64,000 nt of DNA from a virus (IMGVR_UViG_2852079565_000004:55005-119004), one strand, 5' to 3'; shown: positions 36,996 through 50,032, counted from the first letter of the stretch. Notes: generated by a model not told the origin, from the sequence alone. Made by a program: numbers and translations.

Positions 36996-37297
36996 GCTCG
37001 CAGCTCCATGACTTCTCTTTTGGTTTGCTCAAGTAGTTCACTCTCAGTACCGTGAATTTCTTGCCATGTTTTAGGCGCTGCATGAAAACCAGTATCATAA
37101 GTAGGTCTGTGATGAGGCGGGCATAACGGTAAAACATCTTTATGGCTAGCTCTTTGCGCCATTCCCTGCCCCGTTCTTACATGATGGATTTCCGCGGGGC
37201 TTGCTCCATACCCCATATTACGGCAGCAAATGCAGCCAAGTTCTGCTACATCCGATAGCCACTGTTTATCTTCTTTAGCCTTTGATTTTTTGGTCAT
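36983..37297 (-). CDS. Ref-like HNH/Zn protein
   Basis: GCICC, AEIHH, LPLCPPHH. Confidence 0.8.
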   Translation of the reverse strand: MTKKSKAKEDKQWLSDVAELGCICCRNMGYGASPAEIHHVRTGQGMAQRASHKDVLPLCPPHHRPTYDTGFHAAPKTWQEIHGTESELLEQTKREVMELRACRV

Positions 37298-37308
37298 TGG
37301 TCTTGCCT

Positions 37309-37902
37309 CTAGGTAAAATCTAATAACTGAGCCGCCGCATTTTCAGCAGCTTCTTGGGTGGGGAATTTACGAAATAAAATGAAGTTCCAAAGCACATCGA
37401 GGGTTGATTTGTAGAGTTCGCCAAAGGCTAGGTCATCCATTTTGGCAAAGCTAATTGATTTGGCTACACGGCGTAGGCTACCGTCTGGCATTTCAAAGGT
37501 TTCATAATGGCCTGATTGCTCTACCACCCAATAGCGGAAAGCATCAAAGGATTTGGTTGCTGATATATTGTGAGCACGTTTCTGAGCTATCTCATCGAGA
37601 TAAACATCTGCAGCGGATTGGAGAGCATCATCGTTATCGGTGTAGTAAGCGAGGAATTTAACGTAACCGCGTACTAGCTCTTTTTCTTCAGGCGAAATAG
37701 TGCCACCGGTTGGTTCCCAGTATTCATACCCTAGATTGAATAAAGCGAAGTATTTACGGTGGAAACGCGGGTTACGAGCTTTCTTGAAATCAGCAGAAAG
37801 CACATCACCACACTTGATTTTTGAATGTAAGAAATCTCTCGCAGCGGGGTTAGCCGGCACAAGAGTGTCGTTAGACATTTTGATAAAGCTATGCTGTGCC
37901 AT
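37309..37902 (-). CDS. DUF1367 (NinB-like) protein
   Basis: RNPRFHRKYFAL, KSISFAKMD. Confidence 0.85.
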   Translation of the reverse strand: MAQHSFIKMSNDTLVPANPAARDFLHSKIKCGDVLSADFKKARNPRFHRKYFALFNLGYEYWEPTGGTISPEEKELVRGYVKFLAYYTDNDDALQSAADVYLDEIAQKRAHNISATKSFDAFRYWVVEQSGHYETFEMPDGSLRRVAKSISFAKMDDLAFGELYKSTLDVLWNFILFRKFPTQEAAENAAAQLLDFT

Positions 37903-38008
37903 ACGTTTCTCTCAGTAGACACAGCAAGTGTTAGGATTGGGTGTTCAGACCAATGAGAGTTATTGTATCAGAAATCTTACTTTCTGCAAAAATGATAACT
38001 ATCTAATT

Positions 38009-38896
38009 TTACATGAATAATTTTTTTATTGGCTCAATATATGGCATTATTGCTGATGAAACAGAAGCAGCCCCTCCAGCAATAGTCATTATATCTACTA
38101 GTTTCTCCATAATAATGGATTTGTCTTTAATACCTTTCATTGATTCAAGATTAGGAATCACCTTATCAATAACGTCAGCATCTACTCCTTGATTTTTTAT
38201 TTGTATTAATTCAGAAATTAACTTATCAATCAATTCATTAGATTGAATTTGTAAATTCTGACTAAAATTTTCACTGGCATTTACTACATTAGCATTACCA
38301 TAAATATGGTTATTAAAGGTTTGCGTCACTATTTTTTCGTCTTGTTTTGACAATTTAATATCCTCTATATTCTCTATTTTTCTTTCTATTTCCAATAAAA
38401 ACCTAAGTGTTTTATTTTTTATAGAATCAATTACACTATAACAAGCCATCCTTGGTAAAATCTCATATGCTCTAGTGCAAAAGAAACCTTGATATAACCT
38501 ATTGAATAGAGGTAAAGCTGACATGGGTATATCTCTTACAGGATCATCATCAGCTGAGTACGAAAGTAGACTTTCTATATATGACACTGGATAGTAAACT
38601 TTCCCTGAGCCAAAACTATCCTGTAAAAAATCTGGCAATAAATGCTTATCAATTTGCAGTGCAGAGTGATTCGCACCTGCTCTATTAGAGAAGTCCCCTC
38701 GAATTACAGTGCCTACTATGCGGTAATCAGGAATTGCATCATCACCATCATATCCATCTAACTCTAACTCAGTCCATTTAATAAATGTGTCGTTGTTTAT
38801 CTTATATGCTAACACTGAACATTTACGTAAAATATCCGTTATATTTGAACTTGGATTTAAAATATCATTTTGTATTTCGGAGAAAAGAGATGGCAT
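38009..38896 (-). CDS. AbiTii-domain protein (abortive-infection-like moron)
   Basis: DILRKCSVLAYKI..FIKWTELELDGY..IPDYR; low GC. Confidence 0.78.
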   Translation of the reverse strand: MPSLFSEIQNDILNPSSNITDILRKCSVLAYKINNDTFIKWTELELDGYDGDDAIPDYRIVGTVIRGDFSNRAGANHSALQIDKHLLPDFLQDSFGSGKVYYPVSYIESLLSYSADDDPVRDIPMSALPLFNRLYQGFFCTRAYEILPRMACYSVIDSIKNKTLRFLLEIERKIENIEDIKLSKQDEKIVTQTFNNHIYGNANVVNASENFSQNLQIQSNELIDKLISELIQIKNQGVDADVIDKVIPNLESMKGIKDKSIIMEKLVDIMTIAGGAASVSSAIMPYIEPIKKLFM

Positions 38897-38917
38897 TATT
38901 AGCTCCTATTTTTCTTT

Positions 38918-39259
38918 CTATTCTACCCCCAATTTAAGCTTGTGCCACCCCTTGGTTATCCAGCACTTAGAATCACCATCAAGGCAACATTCCATCACTG
39001 GTAACCGTTCACCACATTTACCACAACAACGATTGGATAATTCCGCAATCTCGCGCTTAAGTCTCGCATCATCATTTCGTATGAGCATTTGAATATATTC
39101 ACTTTCATCATATGGCTCACGTCCTGGTCTACGCAATGCACAATTACGCTTAATCATTTCATGTTCTTCAGATTCAACTTGCCACTGCGGGATAACAAAG
39201 CCAGCTTCACGCTGGCGTTTGCGTTGGGCAGCCTTGCGTTCTGCTGCTGACTTAGCCAT
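38918..39259 (-). CDS. Phage hypothetical Zn-binding protein
   Basis: MAKSAAERKAAQR, CGKCG..CC..C. Confidence 0.75.
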   Translation of the reverse strand: MAKSAAERKAAQRKRQREAGFVIPQWQVESEEHEMIKRNCALRRPGREPYDESEYIQMLIRNDDARLKREIAELSNRCCGKCGERLPVMECCLDGDSKCWITKGWHKLKLGVE

Positions 39260-39295
39260 TGGTCTTGCCTCTTCATATCATTTATATCAACTCGG

Positions 39296-39466
39296 TTAAT
39301 GCACTGAGCAATAACGCTCAATAGATAACTCATCTACTCTAGCGCCACCTAGATTTGCCCAAAATGCTATTGTTGAAAGTACATCTTTTTCGCTTGTTGC
39401 GACAAAAAGAGTTATGAAAGACGTTTGGTTCCATAAACCACTTGCTTTATAAACCGATTTTTTCAT
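39296..39466 (-). CDS. Small hypothetical protein (56 aa, not in track)
   Basis: MKKSVYKASGLWNQTSF...CSVH. Confidence 0.45.
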   Translation of the reverse strand: MKKSVYKASGLWNQTSFITLFVATSEKDVLSTIAFWANLGGARVDELSIERYCSVH

Positions 39467-39579
39467 TTTTACCCCAACTAACTACATTTAATAACCTTAT
39501 GACTAAACGGCCTTATATCCGCTGTAAAGCTTGTAGTTATATGATGGGAACGATTTTATTTTTTCCAAGTGTGTGCGTT

Positions 39580-39810
39580 TCATACCTTCATCACCTCTCG
39601 CCAATGATTTAACCTATCTCTAAAAAATTCCCGATGTACCTCTGGTGCTTTTTCTATTTCAACCAGTATTCGTTCCCTATGAATTTTTCGATTTTTCAGT
39701 TGCCGAATTAGCCGACTAGCGAATAAATCAAGTTGCTCCAGTTTGCGATATTCTTCTGGCCATAAAGCACGGTTATGAGGAAGTCCATCAGGTAAATATT
39801 TACCCGACAT
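39580..39810 (-). CDS. Phage hypothetical protein
   Basis: GAGG RBS; operon position. Confidence 0.65.
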   Translation of the reverse strand: MSGKYLPDGLPHNRALWPEEYRKLEQLDLFASRLIRQLKNRKIHRERILVEIEKAPEVHREFFRDRLNHWREVMKV

Positions 39811-39812
39811 AA

Positions 39813-39986
39813 TTACCTCTGCCTTTGAGGTTTCGGCTCTGGTTGATAAGGTGCTTTGGTTCTTGCCCTTGCTGCAGAATTAAAGCGTTCAATGTGGCAC
39901 GGAGAATGGTCTAAACCATCATCGGGCAATATGGGGTGATTGCTCCGGACGAGTGACTCGCCGGTGATTGAGTCTTTGATTGTCAT
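39813..39986 (-). CDS. Phage hypothetical protein
   Basis: Start after AGAGGCAGACCAA ATG. Confidence 0.6.
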   Translation of the reverse strand: MTIKDSITGESLVRSNHPILPDDGLDHSPCHIERFNSAARARTKAPYQPEPKPQRQR

Positions 39987-40040
39987 TTGGTCTGCCTCTG
40001 TATTAATGGTCACGGCTTGGTCGAGCCTTTTTATCGATTT

Positions 40041-40793
40041 TTATTTGTGGCTGTAATTACCCTTTTTACATAAAATTTTATCTCTTATTTCCTTTATCGC
40101 TTCCTCACCAATTAAACGATACTTACCGTCTTTATCGATGAGTTCAGATGTAGAAATCCCTCTTTTAGCTTGACCCATTAACGGCTTGATTGGTGGGATT
40201 GGTTTCCCCTCTTGTATCTGGTTGTAATAAGCGATCAGCTGCTTTTTGATGGATTCCCTAATCTCTTTATCGGACAAGTTATACTGCGTCATGCGTCGCC
40301 TTGCCTCTGGAACAATCCAATACATAACCGTTGATTTCCAAGGGAATGCTTCAACGGATGGATATCGCCACTCCATGTTGCTATAGCGCTTCATTTCAGC
40401 CATGACCTCACAAACTGAAGGTAGACCCATAGCTTGCATCATTCCCTCGCGACACCAACTGATAAACTTTCCGCAGGATGGGAAAAAATCAGACTCTTGC
40501 TGCCTAGCCACACTCATTCCCGCTTTCAATTGCTCAACAGATGTTATGCCATTTTCGATAAACGCCAGTACCCATTGCCGTTTAGTTGCTGAAATATCGT
40601 CTTGGTTTGAAAACACAGTATGCTTTGCCGCTGGGAAAATTTGCACTAAGTTATCAAACAGCATATCAACCAACTTTTCCGCATGTTCATTGATTCCAGC
40701 AGGTTTATTGATTGGCTGAATTAGGCTCGATAATTTTTTGCCATCTCTGTTTTCAATTGCTGAGAGAAGACTTTTCATAGTGTGTTCTCCCAT
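40041..40793 (-). CDS. Replication protein P-like (helicase loader)
   Basis: KRQWVLAFIENGIT..GM..AR..FFPSCGKFISWC. Confidence 0.85.
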   Translation of the reverse strand: MGEHTMKSLLSAIENRDGKKLSSLIQPINKPAGINEHAEKLVDMLFDNLVQIFPAAKHTVFSNQDDISATKRQWVLAFIENGITSVEQLKAGMSVARQQESDFFPSCGKFISWCREGMMQAMGLPSVCEVMAEMKRYSNMEWRYPSVEAFPWKSTVMYWIVPEARRRMTQYNLSDKEIRESIKKQLIAYYNQIQEGKPIPPIKPLMGQAKRGISTSELIDKDGKYRLIGEEAIKEIRDKILCKKGNYSHK

Positions 40794-41731
40794 GCTTCAG
40801 GGCTATTCCAATGGGCTTGTGCAGGTAAACAATCTTCACCCTGTGGAATTTCAGCAAATTTTAATACCAGTTTGTCCCACTGTTTTCGAAGTGTGCTTGG
40901 GCTAAGAATATTTTTGCACCAAAATGGGTCCTTATTTGCCCTATCAAATAACCGGCAAATCTGCCTGTGCGTTCTGCCGTCAATGGTGCGCATTAACCGT
41001 ACATCATTGGCCCATAACGCCCAGTTTGGTTCTTTTGGTGGATTGATATCGTCATCAGATGCAGATGCATTTTCGTAAAGTTCAGTCACCCGTTTGGATA
41101 TCCACTGCGCACAAAGCAAATCATCCGATGTTCCCCATTGTCGTTTCTTTGCACTGAACACAACGGCATCAGGGTGACGAGCCACAAACGAATTATCATT
41201 CGTGTTTTCGTCAGGTTGTGAAACGACCGGACAAGAAGGGTTTATATTCTCTGTAGTATTCTCTGTTGTAATCTCTGAAGGATCGAACTGCGGATTTGTT
41301 TCACCGCCACCGTCGAATTTGTCTTGTGGCGGCTGTTCATTTTGTTGTTTCGCCAAATCCCCATAGTGACTTTCCCCGATTGCGCTTTGCGCATTTGGGA
41401 GATTATCAATAGGTTGCGTCATAATTTGGTCAAGTTGGTCACAATCTATACGGTAATATATTTTGTGTTCTAAACGCCTATCCGTTTCAATTAAAACCCC
41501 GCGTTTAACAAGATGCTTTCTGGCGGTGAGTTGTTCGCGATAGCTTAACCCTGTTTCGGCCGTAATATCCTCAGATGACTTATAGACCCCTAATTCAGAA
41601 TCCGTTTTATCCTGCCAATAAAATATCTGGCTAAAAAATATTACTGCATTGACGCTACCAAAGCGTTTAACTAGACCAGGGTAGTAAGCCACTGGCCGCC
41701 CAAAATCGAGTAACAAATCTGATGGTCTCAT
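40775..41731 (-). CDS. Replication initiator O-like
   Basis: WANDVRLMR, FWCKNILSPSTLRKQWDKL. Confidence 0.85.
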   Translation of the reverse strand: MRPSDLLLDFGRPVAYYPGLVKRFGSVNAVIFFSQIFYWQDKTDSELGVYKSSEDITAETGLSYREQLTARKHLVKRGVLIETDRRLEHKIYYRIDCDQLDQIMTQPIDNLPNAQSAIGESHYGDLAKQQNEQPPQDKFDGGGETNPQFDPSEITTENTTENINPSCPVVSQPDENTNDNSFVARHPDAVVFSAKKRQWGTSDDLLCAQWISKRVTELYENASASDDDINPPKEPNWALWANDVRLMRTIDGRTHRQICRLFDRANKDPFWCKNILSPSTLRKQWDKLVLKFAEIPQGEDCLPAQAHWNSPEAWENTL

Positions 41732-41732
41732 T

Positions 41733-41957
41733 TCATACCCCCAGCGCTTTAGCGATAGCGCGGCAAGCGTTCTGGTATTGCTCAGGCGTCAGTTTCTTTA
41801 AAAGTAGCTTTTGTTTTTGTTGTTCGTACTGCATGCCAATATTGAGTGCTGCCGCCCTTCTTCCCTCGAAAATATCTTCGATCTGTTGTCTGTCTGCAGG
41901 CTTTCCATTCAATAAAAAACCATTACAGTAGGTAATTAATTCAGTCGTTCTTAGCAT
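41733..41957 (-). CDS. Phage hypothetical protein
   Basis: Start at AGAGGCAAGACCA ATG. Confidence 0.7.
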   Translation of the reverse strand: MLRTTELITYCNGFLLNGKPADRQQIEDIFEGRRAAALNIGMQYEQQKQKLLLKKLTPEQYQNACRAIAKALGV

Positions 41958-41974
41958 TGGTCTTGCCTCTTGAA

Positions 41975-42430
41975 TTAGTGCACGCTGGTCGGGCGTGATA
42001 TTGCATTTAGTGCAGTAATTGCACTATTGATATTTCGTGACATGTCACGTCCCTCAAGTAAAATTTCGGTCATAGCTTCTGCAAATCGCTGTATGGCTAC
42101 TGATGCTAAATAGTTTTTAGTATCTCCTCTTACTCGGGCTAACCTCGAAGCCGGCAACGCCATTTCAATCGCTGGCATCAGCTCTGCTAATTTCTTCATT
42201 GATGCGTTCGAATCGCCTCGTAACCACCGAAATATCTGTTGTCGGTTATTGTTAATCGCTTTCCAATCCGCTTGGCCTCGTTCATCTTCAATCACATGTA
42301 AGCGGCTCTGTGATTTGTCTCGTGTGATTTGTAAATACGCACGGCTTATCTCAATCGCCACGTGCTCTTGACCATGTTCTGTAGCCCAGCTCTCAATTTC
42401 GGAGCGGACAATATCGATATCAAAACTCAT
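41975..42430 (-). CDS. YdaT-family CII-like regulator
   Basis: WATEHGQEHVA, NNRQQIFRWL, LMPAIEMALP; position after cro. Confidence 0.82.
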   Translation of the reverse strand: MSFDIDIVRSEIESWATEHGQEHVAIEISRAYLQITRDKSQSRLHVIEDERGQADWKAINNNRQQIFRWLRGDSNASMKKLAELMPAIEMALPASRLARVRGDTKNYLASVAIQRFAEAMTEILLEGRDMSRNINSAITALNAISRPTSVH

Positions 42431-42452
42431 CTCTGCGTCTCCTGTCGCAAAA

Positions 42453-42470
42453 TTGATTATGAATAATCAG
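42453..42470. promoter_or_regulatory. Putative YdaT/CII operator
   Basis: TTGATT-N6-AATCAG between cro and ydaT (YdaT consensus TTGATT-N6-AATCAA). Confidence 0.7.
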
Positions 42471-42501
42471 TTTTTTAAATTTCTTGTTGATATATTCGCT
42501 T

Positions 42502-42711
42502 TCATACAACTCTCTCATTGCCATTGATGAGCCACGTTGGGTCACAATTTAAAACCTTCGCAATTTCAACAATAAACCGGGGTCTTTTAATAAGACCTGA
42601 TTCGATTTGCTGAATTGATTGCTGTTTTAGCCCAACTCTGTCTGCAAGTTCTGACTGAGTTAAATGGAGCTCTATACGACGAGTCTTAACTCGTTCAGAT
42701 AACGTTTCCAT
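42502..42711 (-). CDS. cro: Cro (434-like)
   Basis: [28 protein letters not shown] closely matches 434 Cro. Confidence 0.92.
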
Positions 42712-42725
42712 CCTCACCTCCTTTT

Positions 42726-42784
42726 ACAATATTTCTTGTATTTAAAAACAAATTAGTTTGTTTGTCAATTACAGGTTTTCTTGT
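42726..42784. promoter_or_regulatory. OR1-OR3 operators (434 type)
   Basis: ACAA-N6-TTGT at 42726 and 42748; ACAG-N6-TTGT at 42771. Confidence 0.88.
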
Positions 42785-42815
42785 AATTATCCTCTAGAGC
42801 TATAAAGGGGTTTAT

Positions 42816-43508
42816 ATGTCAATTTCTGAACGCGTAAAAAATAAAAGAATCCTTCTCGGCCTCACTCAAACAGAGTTAGCCGAAACCGTTGGCACTACAC
42901 AGCAGTCAATAGAGCAATTAGAAAGCGGAAAAACAAAACGTCCTCGCTTTCTACCTGAACTTGCAGCTGCCTTAAAGTGTTCTGTTAGCTGGTTGGTTAC
43001 AGGAGAAGAAGACAAAAACGATACCCTACCTCCTGAAAATGAATGGGGAGGGATAAAGTCTTGGGATAATAAAACGCCTTTGGATTACGATGAAGTGGAA
43101 GTGCCATTCTATAAAGATATTGAATTTGCTTGTGGTACAGGCGGTAGTATTGATGTGGATTACAACGGTTTTAAATTAAGGTTTGCCAAATCAACACTGC
43201 GCAAGATTGGTGCCCCTACTGATGGTTCAACAATTATTTGTTTTCCAGCAAGTGGCGATAGTATGGAGCCTGTAATACCAGATGGTTCTGCTATTGCCAT
43301 TGATGTATCTAATAAAAAAATTATTGATGGAAAAGTTTATGCTATCGATCAAGATGGCTTGAAACGTTTAAAAATGCTTTATCGAAAACCAGGTGGAAAA
43401 CTTATTATTCGCAGTTATAACCGTGAAGAATACGACGATGAAGAGGCTGATGAAAACAGCGTCATGATTATTGGCAGAATGTTTTGGTATTCTGTTCTTG
43501 ATTACTAA
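42816..43508 (+). CDS. cI: CI repressor (434-like HTH + S24 peptidase)
   Basis: [25 protein letters not shown]; ACG cleavage site; GDSMEP. Confidence 0.95.
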
Positions 43509-43517
43509 GGTAACCCT

Positions 43518-44675
43518 ATGGAAAATTTCAAGTTAAAGCTTAAAAATCATGTGGATCATGTAAAACAAGTTGGGCAACATTGCTCAACAGAGGAAACAAC
43601 TAAACAGGCACTAATATTGCCTTTCCTTGATATCCTCGGCTTTAGCCCTTATGACCCTCAAAAAGTCAAAGCAGAATACGGCGCTGATTTCCCCGGAGTA
43701 AAAGCAAATGAGCGTGTTGACTATGCACTATTCTGTCAAGATGTCCCCGTTATGTTTATCGAAGCCAAATGCTATTTTGAAAAATTAGATAACCATTGTC
43801 CTCAGCTTTCTCGGTATTTTAACTCCACTCCTGAAGTTACAATCTCAGCAATAACCAATGGGCTAGAGTGGCGTTTTTTCACTGATTTAAAACAAAAAAA
43901 CGTTATGGACCCTACTCCATTCTTACGCATTAGAATGGATGAAATTAGTGATTCAGACGCAAGCCAATTATTCCGTTTTAGACATGATAAATTCAAACCA
44001 GAAGCATTAAGAACACTGGCTGAAGAGAGCGTATATTTATCTGCTTTCACTAAAACCATTAGCTCAAGCCTCAGAGATGTTGATAGTGAATTCGTTCGCT
44101 ATGTCGCGAGCCGTTCTAATGTTGAAAGACAATTAAATCAGCGTTTTATTGACTCTATTACACCGCTAGTAAAACAAGCCGTTGAGCGTTCTGTTAGTGC
44201 AATGGTGGTTTCAGGCTTATCTGGTAAGTTTACTTACGGTGAAGAGCCTGTTGAAGCAGCAGTAGAGGAAACTCAAGAGTCTAATGAATTAAAAGATATT
44301 ATCGATCCCGATAACCCAAACATTATTACCACAACGACCGAATTAACTTTATTTGAAAAAATAAAGCAGATCACTGGATGTGATGAAATTGAATATAAAG
44401 ATACTGAGTCTTACTTTGGTGTCCTATATCAAGGCAAGGTTAATCGTTGGATAGTTAGATTCTACGATAAGAAAAATAGCGCTTATATCATGGTTCCTAT
44501 AGAGATTACTGATCTGCTAGGTAATGAAATAAAGCGTGCAGGTTTAGAATTAACGAATAATCGAATCACCATTCAATCCCCTGAAGATATATTAAGAATA
44601 ACAGGCATCATTCTTGACTCGTTTGAATACGTAAAAAATGATGAAAACTTCAGAAAAAAATCAGCTAATGAATAA
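43518..44675 (+). CDS. HsdR N-terminal-like PD-(D/E)xK nuclease domain protein
   Basis: EETTKQALILPFL..LG, RVDYAL, FIEAK, ITNGLEWRFF; 9 nt after cI stop. Confidence 0.8.
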   Translation: MENFKLKLKNHVDHVKQVGQHCSTEETTKQALILPFLDILGFSPYDPQKVKAEYGADFPGVKANERVDYALFCQDVPVMFIEAKCYFEKLDNHCPQLSRYFNSTPEVTISAITNGLEWRFFTDLKQKNVMDPTPFLRIRMDEISDSDASQLFRFRHDKFKPEALRTLAEESVYLSAFTKTISSSLRDVDSEFVRYVASRSNVERQLNQRFIDSITPLVKQAVERSVSAMVVSGLSGKFTYGEEPVEAAVEETQESNELKDIIDPDNPNIITTTTELTLFEKIKQITGCDEIEYKDTESYFGVLYQGKVNRWIVRFYDKKNSAYIMVPIEITDLLGNEIKRAGLELTNNRITIQSPEDILRITGIILDSFEYVKNDENFRKKSANE

Positions 44676-44677
44676 GT

Positions 44678-45538
44678 TGTATTAGCTCAGATTTGATCTT
44701 ACATAGCTATGGCACAGAGCTAAATCTAACCTGACAGGGCGCTCTGTGCCAGAAGCAGATGTTAACAAACATTATGAGTCAATTGATTAAGAGATGAAGT
44801 ATCATGGCTTTTTTGACAGGAATTAGTGATTTTTTAAATAGCATTCCTCAATGGTTATCATCATTTATTACCGCTTTGATCGGCGCATTTGTTGGTGGCT
44901 GGTTTACTCTTAAAGGAGTTGACCGCGAGGCTAAGATTACTCGCGCAGAGAACGAAAAAAATTCCCTTGAGTTGCAGTTGTCTGTATTAAAAGGAATTAA
45001 GGGCGAGATATTCACTTTAATGAGCCTATATAATAAAAGAATGAAAAATTCTATTGATAGTATTGGGTCAGGAAAAGCACTTCTTTTTAATTTCCCAGTT
45101 GGAGATGATAACTTTACATTCTATGAGCAAAACGCAAAAATTATTGCAAAATTAGATGACGATGCAAGAGATTCAATAATTAATATTTACACATATGCTC
45201 GTTCGCTAATACAGTCTTTCAAAGGAAACAATCAGCTTCTTGTAGAGTATGAAAAGATCCTTTTTGACATGGCTGATAATAATAAAAATAGAGATATGTA
45301 TGAAAGATTGCACGCTGAAAAAATCGAAATAATGGTGGATTATGCGCAAGGAATAAAAAATATTGATGCAGAACTTAGATATGCTATCAACGAGGGATTT
45401 AGGGTTATTGACCAAGAAATAACGGCACTACAAGTAAAAATAACAAATTTAAAGTCATAAAGGTTACTTCCGCTCTTCGCTCAGACTAGGCTGTCAAGCA
45501 TAGTTCAAAATCTGTCAGTTCAAGTCTGAACTAGTACA
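44678..45538. mobile_element. Non-autonomous mini-transposon-like cassette with one cargo gene
   Basis: Terminal inverted repeats TGTATTAGCTCAGATTTGATCT / revcomp TGTACTAGTTCAGACTTGAACT (18/22); internal CTGACAG-like repeats. Confidence 0.6.
44804..45460 (+). CDS. N-terminal TM + helical hypothetical protein
   Basis: SSFITALIGAFVGGWFT TM; low GC. Confidence 0.75.
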   Translation: MAFLTGISDFLNSIPQWLSSFITALIGAFVGGWFTLKGVDREAKITRAENEKNSLELQLSVLKGIKGEIFTLMSLYNKRMKNSIDSIGSGKALLFNFPVGDDNFTFYEQNAKIIAKLDDDARDSIINIYTYARSLIQSFKGNNQLLVEYEKILFDMADNNKNRDMYERLHAEKIEIMVDYAQGIKNIDAELRYAINEGFRVIDQEITALQVKITNLKS

Positions 45539-45775
45539 AATAAATTTTAATTTATCTATATCCCCCTTGTTCAATAAAGCACAAGGGTTTTTTGTATGTT
45601 CTCTATACTTTCTCCCTCATGTTTTGTTCTCAGTTTAAAGCTCCCTATAACCCATTTGTAGTATTTCCTGCTATTTAAACGTGACCGCCTCCCTGTTTTC
45701 ACAAAATTAAACAAAATAAATCATCCTGTTAAAACAATTAATTACAATTAAAACCACGATGAAATACAATTTAAT

Positions 45776-45818
45776 ACAAATTTAATTGTTTACAGATATA
45801 CAAGATATTTTGTATATT
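45776..45818 (+). promoter_or_regulatory. pL promoter with OL operators
   Basis: ACAA-N6-TTGT at 45776 and 45800 overlapping TTTACA..TATATT. Confidence 0.8.
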
Positions 45819-45956
45819 ACAAACATCGAAACAAATACAGCAAGTGTTTAGATAAGTGTTCAGACTTAAAAATTAGCCCACACCAGGGAAACAGTTAGAC
45901 CAAAACCAGAGGCAAGACCAGACAGCTCGGAAAGACGGGCATTGATTTATAGACGT

Positions 45957-46072
45957 AAAAAAACCCACCGAAGTGGGTTCCTTTACCTCGGGTCGCCGAC
46001 CAAAGCTAACCGAGAGTTCTACTAGCGCGACCAAACGCTAGAAGAGGCAAGACCAATGATAAATCACTGATC
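45957..46072 (-). ncRNA. Predicted antisense sRNA in the pL leader
   Basis: TTGTGC-N17-TAAAAT (46107-46079); two UUUGGUCG-loop hairpins; terminator ACCCAC-UUCG-GUGGG followed by 7 U. Confidence 0.65.
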
Positions 46073-46095
46073 ACAGTTATTTTAAAGGAGCTGCT

Positions 46096-46428
46096 ATGAA
46101 AGCACAACCTAAAACCCTAAGTGTCACCTTATACATTCATGCACAGAAGCAACCTGATGGTTCATATCAATTCAACGCCTATGCATTTAAGTCTGATGTG
46201 AAATCAGGTTTAGGCTTTGTTATTGCTGAACACGTTACTGAAATTCCTTTTACAGAACCAACCAATGCAGAACTTGTTCAGTTAGAAATCAATGCACTCA
46301 AAGCTGAGCAAAGCAAAAATCTTGCTGATGCTCAGGTGAAATCAAGCTTACTGGAAGACCAGATCCAGATGTTGCTCTGTTTGGAAGGCAAACCCATTTC
46401 TAAAACTGACGAACAAATCCCTTATTAA
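46096..46428 (+). CDS. Phage early hypothetical protein
   Basis: AAGGAG RBS; first gene of pL operon. Confidence 0.75.
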   Translation: MKAQPKTLSVTLYIHAQKQPDGSYQFNAYAFKSDVKSGLGFVIAEHVTEIPFTEPTNAELVQLEINALKAEQSKNLADAQVKSSLLEDQIQMLLCLEGKPISKTDEQIPY

Positions 46429-46440
46429 GAGGCAAGACCA

Positions 46441-48405
46441 ATGACAACTTTTATCTGTGTATTTGAGCCTACGACCGAGGCTCGAACCAATGGCGCTATA
46501 CCTTTAACCATCGCTTTCAATGCAGCGAATGCCAAAATTGCGGCAGCAACAGCAATGATTAAGCTATCTGAAGCTTACCCTGATTCTCTGGATAATTTTA
46601 ATATCGATGAGCCGATTATTTGTGAGGATGCTGTCGGTTCCCCTCGCCCTGCGCTCGATCAGTTCGATGAAAAATTTGCACTTGAAAATGAGTTCGACGG
46701 AGAAAAATGGCACCCCATTAAATATAAAGAATTTAAAAAGCTTGCAACTAAACCCCGCGTAGCTGCTTTACTGATGTTTGGTAAAACTCAAATTACTGAT
46801 AAAGAATACACTTCAACATTGAAATATCTCAATGAAAGTAAAGAAGCGCCAAAAATCCGCCATATCGCCACTGGCCTTGCTGAAATCACCAAAGTTTCAT
46901 TAATGGATGCCGAAGCCACGATGGAAATCGCGCAGGCGGTTTATGAGTATGCTGACGATAATGTCACTATCGAAGAGGCTAAGGCGCTTGGTGAAAGTTG
47001 GTTAACCGAGGAACCTGAACTTCCTCCCGCTGAGGACGAGCCTGTCCTTAAACGTGATTATGCCGCACTTGATCTCGAAATTGCCCTCGCGCTCTTGGAC
47101 ATTAAACCAAGCGATGCAAAAAGTGCAGATATTCGCAAAGCAAAAGAACTCATCAGCGCTGAAGATAAGGCATGGAAACGTTTATCTATGGATTTACGCA
47201 CATTCCCTAGCGTTCTAGATATCCCTCGCGAAAGCATCTTTGCACTAGTGGCTGAGGCACGCGAAAAGCCCGAACTATTTGATGATGCGAATGCCCGTAA
47301 AGCGTTTATCGATTCAAAACTTAGTACCAACAGCCCAAAAGTAACATCTCTCGGTAGTGGCCGTTTCGCTGTTGATAATTTAGATGCTAAGCCGGCTAAT
47401 GATGAAACACCTGAGCAACCGGCTAAAACAGAGAAACCAAAGCGCGCCAGCAAGAAAAAAGACACACCGGCTAGAGTAGAAAAAGAACCAGTTGTGATTG
47501 AGACACCTGTTGTTTCTACGCCAATTGCCACTGAACAAGATGACTTTCAACAACGTGCAGCGATACTTGATGAGGTGCTTAATAGCGGTAATACAAACCA
47601 CCTTAATATTTGGAAGCAAGTACAACGTACTGATTCACGCTTTACCAAACCACTTGATGGCATGGGCTTTGTTGGTACCAGTATCAACAGCACCTATATG
47701 TTTATGCGTGCGACTGAAATATTTGGCCCAATAGGTGAAGGCTGGGGTTATGAAATCATTGAAGAAAAAATGATTGATGGAAAGCCCCTTGTCGAGCCCG
47801 TACTCGATGCTCACCATAAACAAGTCGCAATGAGGTTCCTGCGTGATGGGGATGGAACATTACTCTTTGAACAAAATCACTCAATCAAGATCCGCTTTTG
47901 GTACATCATCGAAGGCGAAACTCGTGGTGAGTTTGAGAGCTACGGTGCCACACCTTATCGCTATCAGACTAAGCAAGGAATAAGGACGGACAGTGAAGTG
48001 ATAAAAAAATCACTCACCGACTCAATCAAAAAAGCACTTTCCATGCTGGGCTTTAGTTCTGACGTATTTATGGGAATGCATGATAACCCTGAATATGTGG
48101 CGAGTAATAAGCTCGAGTATGAAATCAAAGCCGCCAGCGATAACGCTGAAGATGCGACCCGCATTCGCAAAGAGTTAGACGAGAAGTTCACGCGACACAC
48201 TGAAACGATGCGCAGTGCAGTGACGCCAAACGAATTACGGGGTATCACATCCACCCTTACCCGTGAAATTTCAACGCATGCCAAGTTGGCCAAACAACGT
48301 GGCGACAGTGAATATGAAAAATATTTAAACGGCCGTTTACGTCGATTAAATGAAATTGAAAAAGAGTGTTTAGACCAACTGAAACAAAAAGAAGAGGCAA
48401 TCTAA
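46441..48405 (+). CDS. Recombination protein: RecE-like N-terminal region + Rad52/Sak-like annealase C-terminal domain
   Basis: YAALDLEIALAL; C-terminal TEIFGPIGEGWGY..KKSLTDSIKKALSMLG..DVF.G. Confidence 0.72.
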   Translation: MTTFICVFEPTTEARTNGAIPLTIAFNAANAKIAAATAMIKLSEAYPDSLDNFNIDEPIICEDAVGSPRPALDQFDEKFALENEFDGEKWHPIKYKEFKKLATKPRVAALLMFGKTQITDKEYTSTLKYLNESKEAPKIRHIATGLAEITKVSLMDAEATMEIAQAVYEYADDNVTIEEAKALGESWLTEEPELPPAEDEPVLKRDYAALDLEIALALLDIKPSDAKSADIRKAKELISAEDKAWKRLSMDLRTFPSVLDIPRESIFALVAEAREKPELFDDANARKAFIDSKLSTNSPKVTSLGSGRFAVDNLDAKPANDETPEQPAKTEKPKRASKKKDTPARVEKEPVVIETPVVSTPIATEQDDFQQRAAILDEVLNSGNTNHLNIWKQVQRTDSRFTKPLDGMGFVGTSINSTYMFMRATEIFGPIGEGWGYEIIEEKMIDGKPLVEPVLDAHHKQVAMRFLRDGDGTLLFEQNHSIKIRFWYIIEGETRGEFESYGATPYRYQTKQGIRTDSEVIKKSLTDSIKKALSMLGFSSDVFMGMHDNPEYVASNKLEYEIKAASDNAEDATRIRKELDEKFTRHTETMRSAVTPNELRGITSTLTREISTHAKLAKQRGDSEYEKYLNGRLRRLNEIEKECLDQLKQKEEAI

Positions 48406-48905
48406 TGACCAAGACAACTGCTATTGCAATGGCTGCTGACTACAGCAAGTTACAACAACTCGTCGAAACAGGTGAATTCACCGCAGAAGATGTTGCCGAT
48501 ACCTTAGAGGGTATCGAGTGTGAACTAGGCGATAAACTGGATGCAATTATGCTTCATGCCCGTAATTTAGAGGGGCAAGCTAAAACGCTGGATGAAGAAT
48601 CAAAACGTTTGGCAGACCGTAAAAAATCATTCGAAAACCAAGTTAAAAACCTGAAAAAATATGCATTGGATTGCTTGTTAACATCAGGCAAAGACAAGTT
48701 AAAAACCACGAAAAATACCTTTACGGCTCGCGCTGGTGTTGTGCGTGTCATCATCGATAACGAAGCAGCTTTGCCCGATGAATTGGTGGATGTTCAGACC
48801 ATTACTGCCCCTGATAAAAAGCGTATTAAAGAAGCAATCGAAAATGGTATTGAAATACCTGGTGCTCACTTAGAAGTCGGTGATCGCTCATTGATGGTTC
48901 GTTAA
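48405..48905 (+). CDS. Siphovirus Gp157-family protein
   Basis: DTLEGI, PDKKRIKEAIENG.EIPGAHL. Confidence 0.85.
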   Translation: MTKTTAIAMAADYSKLQQLVETGEFTAEDVADTLEGIECELGDKLDAIMLHARNLEGQAKTLDEESKRLADRKKSFENQVKNLKKYALDCLLTSGKDKLKTTKNTFTARAGVVRVIIDNEAALPDELVDVQTITAPDKKRIKEAIENGIEIPGAHLEVGDRSLMVR

Positions 48906-48949
48906 TCACTTTAGCGCCCAGCAATGGGCGCATATCAGGAGATATTTTT

Positions 48950-49129
48950 ATGGCCATGAAATTAGAAGTCATCATTACTCACGATGAAACTAACAATAAA
49001 TGCAGCGTTGAGTGGACCACTGCATCGACTCAACAAGTCACTCGCCAAGAAGAACAAACGCTATCACTGGTAAAAAAGGCATTGTTACTTCAACTGGGTT
49101 ACCCAGCGGCACACACTGTTATCCATTAA
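48950..49129 (+). CDS. Small hypothetical protein (59 aa)
   Basis: AGGAG RBS; MAMKLEVIITHDE...VIH. Confidence 0.6.
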   Translation: MAMKLEVIITHDETNNKCSVEWTTASTQQVTRQEEQTLSLVKKALLLQLGYPAAHTVIH

Positions 49130-49158
49130 CATGACATGTCACAAACGAGGCAAGACCA

Positions 49159-49329
49159 ATGCTAAGACACGAACATCAAAAAGACCAGGAAGTCAAAATC
49201 ACCCTACCCGATGGCTCGCACGGGTTTGTTTCAACAGATAGACGTTGCAAGGTTTCTTATGACTTTCCTGCACATATTAGAATAGAAATACAGCCTACTC
49301 AGGCAGAACTACAAAGGAGTAAACAATGA
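49159..49329 (+). CDS. CsrA/RsmA-like small protein (56 aa, not in track)
   Basis: MLRHEHQKDQEVKITLPDGSHGFVSTDRRCKVSYDFPAHIRIEIQ... pattern-aligns with CsrA ML..GE.LMI..V.V..VRIGVNAP..V.V; starts at GAGGCAAGACCA ATG. Confidence 0.55.
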   Translation: MLRHEHQKDQEVKITLPDGSHGFVSTDRRCKVSYDFPAHIRIEIQPTQAELQRSKQ

Positions 49330-49499
49330 TTTATGGTTTATTCCTGCTAAATTGCAGTGGTGCTGATTGTTTATATAAATCTAACGGCTATACCTATCCC
49401 GATGAGCAGAATTGTTTAATGGATAAAGACGCCCTAACTCAACGAGGTGTTTTGTCTGAATGCTATCCCATCGAAGCAATTATTCGGGCCAATAATTGA
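49326..49499 (+). CDS. Small Cys-rich protein (DUF1482-like)
   Basis: MIYGLFLLNC..C..YPDEQNC..ECYPIE; AAGGAG RBS, ATGA overlap. Confidence 0.65.
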   Translation: MIYGLFLLNCSGADCLYKSNGYTYPDEQNCLMDKDALTQRGVLSECYPIEAIIRANN

Positions 49500-49571
49500 T
49501 TAAGCATAATTAGTTTTATTCTGCATTTTTTCTTACTGTGGTGGTTTATTCAAAACCAATGGATAACCACC

Positions 49572-49778
49572 ATGAAACAACCACAATTAACCCCTTGGGC
49601 ACCCGAGGAACAGTTATTAACTGAGTTTGATATTAAGTTAGGCAAGCTAGCTGCCAGTGTAAAAAACAGACCATGTACAAAAGCTAATATCAAGCATGCC
49701 TGCAACATTGCTGACCAACTTATTTTATTAATGATGAGGCAAGACCAAGATGAGACAAAATATCACAGAAGGCTATGA
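49572..49778 (+). CDS. Phage hypothetical protein
   Basis: 68-aa ORF. Confidence 0.55.
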   Translation: MKQPQLTPWAPEEQLLTEFDIKLGKLAASVKNRPCTKANIKHACNIADQLILLMMRQDQDETKYHRRL

Positions 49779-49822
49779 TTTATTTCTCCGCGACATTAAG
49801 CAAGCGGATATGGGAGGAAATT

Positions 49823-50032
49823 ATGTTATATGAATGTTTGCCTATTTCCGCATACTGCAATATGTACGGAGAAACACCAGAGTCCATTAATAAGCGCATA
49901 CAACGGCAATATTGGATAGTCGGTGTACATGTTTTAAAAGTTGAGGGTTCAAAAGAACGTTGGATTGATATTGCTGAGGTGAATAAGTGGGCGCGAAAAA
50001 ACAAACAGGCTACGCACTACCAAGAGGGGTGA
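49823..50032 (+). CDS. xis: Excisionase
   Basis: CLPISAYC..GET..INKRIQR..W..GVHV..ERWID..VNKWAR; GGAGG RBS; overlaps int. Confidence 0.82.
   Translation: MLYECLPISAYCNMYGETPESINKRIQRQYWIVGVHVLKVEGSKERWIDIAEVNKWARKNKQATHYQEG

Follow-up and report, generated by a model that had tools for sequence, protein, structure and literature searches.

A prophage antisense RNA related to IsrB is complementary to a start-site tag of early genes and may repress them in trans

A lambdoid prophage of the Providencia type harbors, antisense to the leader of its second early operon, a predicted gene for a small RNA of ~115 nt that contains the exact complement of a 16-nt tag found at the starts of dispersed early genes. 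Taken as a whole, this locus is best explained by an enlarged IsrB-type sRNA that is transcribed from its own promoter and would hold down the tagged early genes in the lysogen, a reading that we consider moderately probable on the basis of comparative sequence analysis. The prophage lies in the window, i.e. the whole stretch of DNA that was analyzed (64,000 nt, IMGVR_UViG_2852079565_000004:55005-119004; positions are counted from its first letter), and a neighboring gene has close relatives in Providencia genomes and diverged ones in Xenorhabdus. The layout includes CI, cro, O, P and integrase: a CI-like repressor gene (HTH plus S24 peptidase, 42816-43508) faces a cro-like gene, past which the minus strand encodes YdaT-like, O-like and lambda-P-like genes. 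CI operators of the form TACAA-N6-TTGTA are located between cro and cI (42725 and 42770), and a second pair (45775-45790 and 45799-45814; feature 45775-45818, plus strand) lies over a plus-strand early promoter, TTTACA-N18-TATATT. Since this second pair overlaps the plus-strand promoter, we assign 45825-46095 as the leader of a second early operon, which codes for a 110-aa protein, a 654-aa RecE/SbcA-type exonuclease, a Gp157-like protein, small proteins, the excisionase and the integrase; the sRNA locus sits within this leader. Two further genes between cI and the early promoter (43518-45460, plus strand) occupy the rexAB position and encode a 385-aa protein with an HsdR-N-type nuclease domain and a 218-aa protein without a family match, both being likely morons expressed in the lysogen.

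The candidate sRNA, an enlarged form of the IsrB family of ~115-116 nt, extends on the minus strand from 46072 to 45957, as supported by its fold, a covariance model built for it (R1), the Rfam isrB model and a contig from an RNA library. R1 detects a single copy in the window (161 bits), and the 116-nt minus-strand RNA is predicted to form three hairpins and a terminator (-47.7 kcal/mol, z = -5.3). The promoter (46079-46107, minus strand) is composed of a weak -35 hexamer, TTGTGC (46107-46102, 3 of 6 positions), a 17-nt spacer and the -10 hexamer TAAAAT (46084-46079), and overlaps the Shine-Dalgarno (SD) sequence and start codon of the 110-aa gene on the opposite strand. From the 5' end, all on the minus strand, the RNA consists of a hairpin H0 with a weak stem containing two G.U pairs (GAUCAGUGA-UUUA-UCAUUGGUC, 46051-46072), which includes the 3' half of the anti-tag; the anti-tag CAUUGGUCUUGCCUCU (46043-46058), the exact complement of the start-site tag, of which UUGCCUCUU is unpaired in the MFE structure and thus predicted to be single-stranded; hairpin H2 (CUAGCG-UUUGGUCG-CGCUAG, 46022-46041) with the loop UUUGGUCG; hairpin H1 (CUCGGUUAGC-UUUGGUCG-GCGACCCGAG, 45987-46014), whose invariant top UAGCUUUGGUCGGCGA is an element in common with Salmonella IsrB; and a Rho-independent terminator, CCCAC-UUCG-GUGGG followed by U7 (45957-45984, with the stem-loop and U7 at 45977-45957). 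The initial annotation, made from the sequence of the window, had described this promoter, and it is present as stated, with the -10 hexamer kept among variants; likewise, the perfectly complementary anti-tag and the two hairpins that it quoted were all found within 45957-46107, and its placement of the gene outside CI operator control agrees with our finding that none of the four CI operators overlaps the sRNA promoter. An alternative minus-strand promoter from a consensus scan (TTAAAA-N18-TATCAT, 46085-46056) was rejected as the main promoter, its -10 element being unconserved among the variants. A type I toxin-antitoxin arrangement, suggested by a weak istR match (17.8 bits), was also rejected, as the sole opposite ORF has four codons and is unconserved.

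The assignment to the minus strand draws on the variation among related prophages. The module, taken as reaching from the A7/U7 run to the 110-aa gene start, was found in well over 100 proviral stretches. A set of 39 distinct variants, later extended to 62 (57 of them full-length), was assembled from proviruses of the Providencia and Xenorhabdus types. A MAFFT alignment misplaced the indels in H2, which RNAalifold then missed, and the variants were realigned with a covariance model on the four-helix structure. The minus-sense fold was the more stable one in 39 of 39 variants (mean difference -13.8 kcal/mol), and a helix-by-helix count in the same set gave 101 G.U pairs in the minus sense versus one in the plus sense. 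In the structure-aware alignment of 62 variants, standard pairs occupied 95.9% of 2078 helix cells in the minus sense, compared to 85.1% in column shuffles (0 of 500 reached the observed value) and 33-51% with slid partners, whereas reading the same pairs in the plus sense reduced pairing to 78.1%, with 375 G.U cells in the minus versus 5 in the plus sense. Changes on both sides were seen in 24 of the 34 pairs. H0 forms nine pairs in the minus sense as opposed to seven and two mismatches in the plus sense, and seven of the nine change on both sides across variants; all seven pairs of H2 do so while the loop retains UUGGUC, with minus-sense G.U pairs in four lineages; and the six outer pairs of H1 behave alike. 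The terminator has G.U pairs in the minus sense only (variants CCCGC/GUGGG and GAGCCCAC) and its U7 run is invariant. All 57 full-length variants have a -10 element of the type TAnnnT (TAAAAT, TATATT, TATAAT, TATACT or TATTAT) at a distance of 4-9 nt ahead of the first hairpin, and one variant with a 24-nt insertion (L188) nevertheless has a rebuilt promoter, TTGTGT-N18-TATAAT. At the other end, conservation stops exactly where the U run ends in four phages with unrelated DNA to the left (L003, L008, L009 and L022). Because of the G.U asymmetry, the covariation, the kept -10 element and the conservation edge at the U run, we conclude that this is a minus-strand sRNA gene and, from these comparisons, that the gene is very probably real. 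The earlier proposals that an sRNA gene on the minus strand has a promoter and a terminator of its own, and that the polarity of the terminator is that of the minus strand, are thus well supported.

The same data bear on the possibility that the conserved element acts in the plus-strand leader, as a nut- or put-like antitermination site, an attenuator, or a standby or decoy ribosome site. The region does serve as the leader to an operon under CI control, there is a genuine boxB-like hairpin on the plus strand a short distance upstream (45925-45940), and one H2 variant (L018, L022 and L148), the single counter-example to the strand asymmetry, has a plus-sense U.G pair. We consider this explanation very improbable, given that G.U pairs and pairing frequency both favor the minus sense by the margins above, that the U7 tract and the UUCG loop fit the minus strand only and that the -10 element is conserved on that strand. 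The boxB-like hairpin itself (GCUCG-GAAAGA-CGGGC) directly follows a partial tag, AGAGGCAAGACCA (AGAGGCAAGACCAGACA), at 45908-45940 (plus strand) in the early-operon leader. Its G.U pairs occur in the plus sense only, and it covaries in L007 (in three tandem copies, L007:2670-2860), L012, L017, L020 and L023; it is not followed by an N-like ORF. This combined element is possibly a nut-like site, or else a decoy or second binding site for the sRNA.

Having assigned the gene to the minus strand, we turn to its family. The Rfam search that the initial annotation had proposed identified an isrB relative (RF01386) on the minus strand, the window copy scoring 30.3 bits (E 1.3e-3) in a permissive scan and thus lying below the gathering cut-off of 35. 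Eight homologous copies in other proviruses score 35.4-40.9 bits, above the cut-off, with true Salmonella IsrB at 105.5, and R1 reciprocally finds the Salmonella IsrB loci at 31-41 bits. Since the window copy is below the Rfam cut-off and its homologues are above it, membership in the IsrB family rests on transitive homology. IsrB-1 and IsrB-2 are RNAs of 88 and 94 nt from Gifsy-2 and Gifsy-1, respectively, verified by Northern blotting and primer extension, and the IsrB gene is situated between sbcA and STM1010 in antisense orientation to the two (PMC2330248). The window RNA resembles IsrB in being a prophage sRNA with its own promoter, antisense in an early operon beside a RecE/SbcA-type exonuclease gene: the 654-aa gene located 385 nt downstream is a PHROG exonuclease, in the same relative position as in the IsrB/sbcA arrangement. 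The likeness extends to hairpin H1 with its loop GCUUUGGUCGG and to the CCCAC-UUCG-GUGGG terminator, both of which are shared by the window RNA, the Rfam isrB consensus, L242, L245 and L274. We regard kinship with IsrB, judged from these matches, as well supported and likely to be correct. The two forms differ in size (~115 nt versus 88/94 nt) and in that Salmonella IsrB consists of no more than a 5' hairpin, H1 and the terminator, without H2, H0 or the anti-tag, and we therefore describe the window RNA as an enlarged relative of IsrB.

Other searches for relatives added little. No further member of RF01386 appeared in 151 Enterobacterales genomes, a sample drawn around one Providencia genome and hence uninformative, and in BLAST searches against phage records the 1.1-kb region had no match while the 141-nt RNA gene matched generic terminators only. 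A 2025 review of phage sRNAs lists neither an IsrB-type RNA nor an RNA controlling many phage genes through a shared start-site motif. The novelty suggested in the initial annotation must be divided: the kind of RNA is not new, as it belongs with IsrB (RF01386), but an arrangement in which one RNA faces many tagged starts was not found described. Among the homologous loci, one provirus has an additional, paralogous sRNA-like gene some 1 kb away (L170:12157-12317, plus strand; 43.9 bits with R1), with a TATAAT -10 element, three UUGGUC loops, CCGUUGGUCUUGCCUCC and a terminator, and in another a tRNA gene (L055:2267-2339; Rfam tRNA, 68 bits) lies ~170 nt from a diverged sRNA copy.

A metatranscriptome offers a hint of expression. 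RNA library X4 contains a stand-alone, unstranded 115-nt contig identical to 45958-46072 without mismatch, whose ends coincide with the predicted start and terminator and whose depth is 85 compared to 3-10 for neighboring contigs, a depth that may sum several prophages; contigs may also break at strain variants (SNPs at 46073 and 46075) and at the conservation edge at 45957. Because the contig is unstranded, may owe its ends to assembly breaks and may have a summed depth, we count it as a hint only that the sRNA is expressed. Long contigs from libraries X1 and X13 span the whole region at a flat depth of ~6 and are uninformative on the sRNA, and library X2 is of doubtful RNA origin.

We now consider the sequence to which the anti-tag is complementary. 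The 16-nt tag AGAGGCAAGACCAATG occurs in the window in five exact and three near copies, compared to 0.46 expected by chance (0 of 100 shuffles reach eight), always on the coding strand and confined to the early region at 37295-49750. At real genes it is located exactly at the stop/start junction. Four exact copies and the one-mismatch copy at 49146 mark real gene starts, whereas the exact copy at 46043, inside the RNA gene, precedes only a four-codon ORF. The pairing of each site with the sRNA was evaluated as the net gain upon cofolding, in which the unfolding of both partners is charged; this measure replaced plain duplex energies, which are noisy (random ORFs reach -39 over the 116-nt RNA). 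On the plus strand, the predicted trans targets are the start of the 654-aa RecE/SbcA-type exonuclease gene (exact 16-mer at 46428-46443; PHROG exonuclease, 5e-232; net gain -14.2 kcal/mol) and that of a 56-aa gene of phrog_2482 (one mismatch, 49146-49161; -18.0). On the minus strand they are the starts of a 74-aa gene of phrog_2465 just upstream of the O-like replication gene (41955-41970; -20.3), of a 113-aa transcriptional-regulator-like gene of phrog_536 (39257-39272; -26.6, with 18 contiguous pairs) and of a 104-aa Ref-like/HNH nuclease gene (37295-37310; -15.3). A tag variant, GAGGCAAGACCAAG-ATG (49735-49750, plus strand; -14.4), precedes a 27-aa ORF as well as the excisionase gene, which starts at 49775. 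The initial annotation had proposed about 8-10 dispersed targets; tagged starts indeed exist, at a lower count, namely five full tags at gene starts, one variant ahead of xis and one partial tag in the early-operon leader.

Several neighboring features deserve mention in their own right. The 27-aa ORF (49750-49833, plus strand), which begins 2 nt past the tag variant and extends across the excisionase start at 49775, is perhaps a coupling ORF for xis. The cro-side early operon also includes an AbiTii-family (abortive infection) gene (38009-38896, minus strand), placed directly downstream of the tagged gene for the 113-aa regulator-like protein. An anti-tag 9-mer, CUCAUUGGUCU (37945-37960, minus strand), is present in the sense leader of a DUF1367 gene (start 37902), just after a promoter-like TTGCAG-N16-TACAAT, and the covariance model finds no second sRNA copy at 37945-37960.

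The distribution of the tag in related phages (L002-L023, in the region 285-400 nt beyond the 110-aa gene start) indicates that it follows particular genes and not junctions. Even in Xenorhabdus the exonuclease gene has the tag ahead of it (an exact copy in L151), and the tag is missing when another gene comes after the 110-aa gene. Nearly all tag-rich contigs carry the RNA gene. The tag resembles what we take to be a segment of 16S rRNA containing GCAAGACCAA. A 16S rRNA source was rejected for this host, as none of the 26 sites in the Providencia genome G001 corresponds to rRNA. A close parallel to the tag is the start-associated sequence (SAS) of cluster K mycobacteriophages, a short, asymmetric, SD-containing motif situated in one orientation directly before the ATG of many non-structural genes, which belong to different families; it often overlaps the upstream stop codon and is common to related phages (PMC3203893). 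The window tag is of this type, the likeness being one in kind only: the SAS sequence (GGGATAGGAGCCC) and host phylum are unrelated, and the window tag extends through the ATG and is matched by an sRNA. For SAS no complementary RNA has been described, and whether its partner is an RNA or a protein was left open by the authors (PMC3203893).

Does the RNA pair with these tags in trans? When the 241 ORF starts in the window were ranked by net cofold gain, the seven best were the tagged genes, the xis region and the cis site, with gains of -14 to -27 kcal/mol versus a median of -2.9. Complementarity to the tag is automatic, one tag copy lying inside the RNA gene, so that what matters is whether this copy has been retained for the sake of the RNA. 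UUGGUCUUGCCUCU is invariant in 39 of 39 distinct variants, as is the top of H1, while the stems covary. The ATG of the cis tag heads no conserved ORF (four codons in the window, seven in L125, an in-frame extension in L027), and L155, L170 and the L047 group lack a cis ATG altogether. The anti-tag is nonetheless kept in copies of the L055, L103 and L047 type despite the loss of the plus-strand AUG, and in L055 despite loss of the SD as well; in L055 and L103, the most diverged copies, the plus strand is no longer SD-AUG, yet AUUGGUCUUGCCU persists single-stranded between hairpins and the whole anti-tag is unpaired. Furthermore, UUGGUC, the complement of GACCAA in the tag, is shown again in the loops of H1 and H2, which face no tag, and occurs in two to five loops or single strands per RNA (up to five in L103). 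Since the anti-tag and UUGGUC are invariant while the stems covary, and the anti-tag is kept without a start on the opposite strand, we argue that they have a conserved pairing partner, and the comparison shows selection on the complement of the tag itself. Half of the anti-tag is paired in H0. Moreover, because the seed never varies, there is no seed/target covariation to score, and two target sites at orthologous starts drift without compensation (two mismatches in L018, one in L007). Trans repression of the tagged early genes is, on this comparative evidence, the best-supported mechanism, a proposal that we regard as evenly poised.

The main rival is an antisense RNA that, in the manner of lambda OOP or P22 sar, acts only in cis: its sole object would be the opposite-strand transcript, i.e. 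the leader of the 110-aa/exonuclease operon, which it might affect by RNase III cleavage or by transcriptional interference, and the tag matches would be a by-product. Full complementarity over 115 nt exists by construction, and the uncompensated tag drift at some targets fits such a role. So does Salmonella IsrB, which occupies the same position without an anti-tag and whose UUUGGUC loop, in the Gifsy-type loci that we fetched, has no GACCAAA partner near gene starts apart from the cis copy; as Salmonella IsrB lacks both the anti-tag and a partner for its loop, the ancestral role of the family was something else. The UUGG loops, too, conform to the YUNR U-turn motif of cis-antisense RNAs. Such loops nucleate pairing in the CopA/CopT and RNAI/RNAII kissing-loop antisense systems, which resemble the window RNA in displaying YUNR in stem-loops, so that UUGG could nucleate loop-loop or loop-linear pairing here, but which differ in controlling plasmid replication through a single cis target each. 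A pure cis pair, however, requires no sequence conservation, whereas here the anti-tag and loop motifs are invariant, the anti-tag outlasts the SD and AUG of the plus-strand copy, and the same 6-mer is displayed two to five times. In addition, were the RNA abundant, it could hardly fail to bind five other mRNAs, with which it can form 16-18 perfect pairs across the SD and AUG. For these reasons we consider an exclusively cis-acting RNA unlikely.

Alternatively, the UUGGUC loops could bind a protein, titrating ProQ, Hfq or a phage protein in the way that RsmX/Y/Z and CsrB titrate CsrA. The RNA does carry repeated hairpins with one motif and weakly resembles rsmX (21.7 bits versus a cut-off of 56), and IsrB is reported to be ProQ-associated, with only 'likely roles in lysogeny maintenance' given (PMC5391140). 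In contrast to the CsrA-sequestering RNAs, the window RNA has no repeated GGA in its loops: the loops UUUGGUCG lack a conserved GGA and the sole AAGGAA is unconserved. Nor is there a candidate protein, as the 56-aa ORF at 49159-49329, which the initial annotation had taken to be CsrA-like, matches no Pfam family and only phrog_2482 (function unknown), so that this reading is unsupported. A protein sponge would also leave the exact complementarity of the motif to the phage's own tag unexplained, and we judge it improbable.

We return to trans repression of the tagged genes and propose the following model. An enlarged IsrB member would have gained the UUGGUC hairpin H2, H0 and the exact complement of the tag AGAGGCAAGACCAAUG. 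Transcribed from its own sigma-70 promoter, which has no CI operator, and ended by a strong intrinsic terminator, the ~115-nt minus-strand RNA (46072-45957) would accumulate in the lysogen. There, the single-stranded UUGCCUCUU (anti-SD) and the UUGGUC motifs would pair with the tags at at least five early gene starts in both early operons, the proposed seed being UUGCCUCU plus the UUGGUC loops, and pairing would occlude the SD and AUG of the tagged genes. The predicted targets are the exonuclease, the regulator-like protein, the Ref-like nuclease and two small proteins, and probably the xis region too. The RNA would also pair over its full length with the leader of the leftward-type early operon. 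Upon induction, the convergent early transcript, which contains a full and a partial site, would both titrate the sRNA and interfere with the promoter of its gene.

The c4 RNA of P1 and P7 is likewise immunity-related, pairs through short exposed segments at a ribosome-binding site, blocks translation in trans and sets exclusion between related phages; it differs in that it is processed from the transcript of its target and acts on a single operon (icd/ant), whereas the window RNA is transcribed from an antisense promoter of its own and its candidate targets are many and dispersed, and a search of 45700-46200 gave no Rfam C4 match at E values up to 10. P22 sar and lambda OOP, small antisense RNAs from temperate phages, likewise have promoters of their own; they pair with an early mRNA and lower its expression, but each has one cis-encoded target and neither has a repeated loop motif or a shared tag. 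The module is common to phages with at least four different operator and promoter types, and since tag and RNA are shared by phages with at least four operator types, the RNA could also act on heteroimmune relatives. We tentatively raise the possibility, which we hold to be somewhat doubtful, of a second, post-transcriptional immunity layer independent of CI, which would silence the phage's own leaky early genes and blunt tagged relatives, with the induced leader as a sponge.

IsrB has been recognized as an expressed Gifsy prophage RNA since 2008, and no target was defined for it in the papers that we consulted (PMC2330248; PMC5391140), while shared start-site motifs such as SAS have been known since 2011 without a partner. 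If a cis role alone holds, the locus described here would be one more prophage antisense RNA. If the proposed model is true, IsrB-type RNAs would gain a function, and the purpose of start-associated sequences in phage genomes would find an answer in RNA. The locus links IsrB with start-site motifs and provides a directly testable model of RNA control over an early phage gene set, with a possible bearing on exclusion between heteroimmune relatives.
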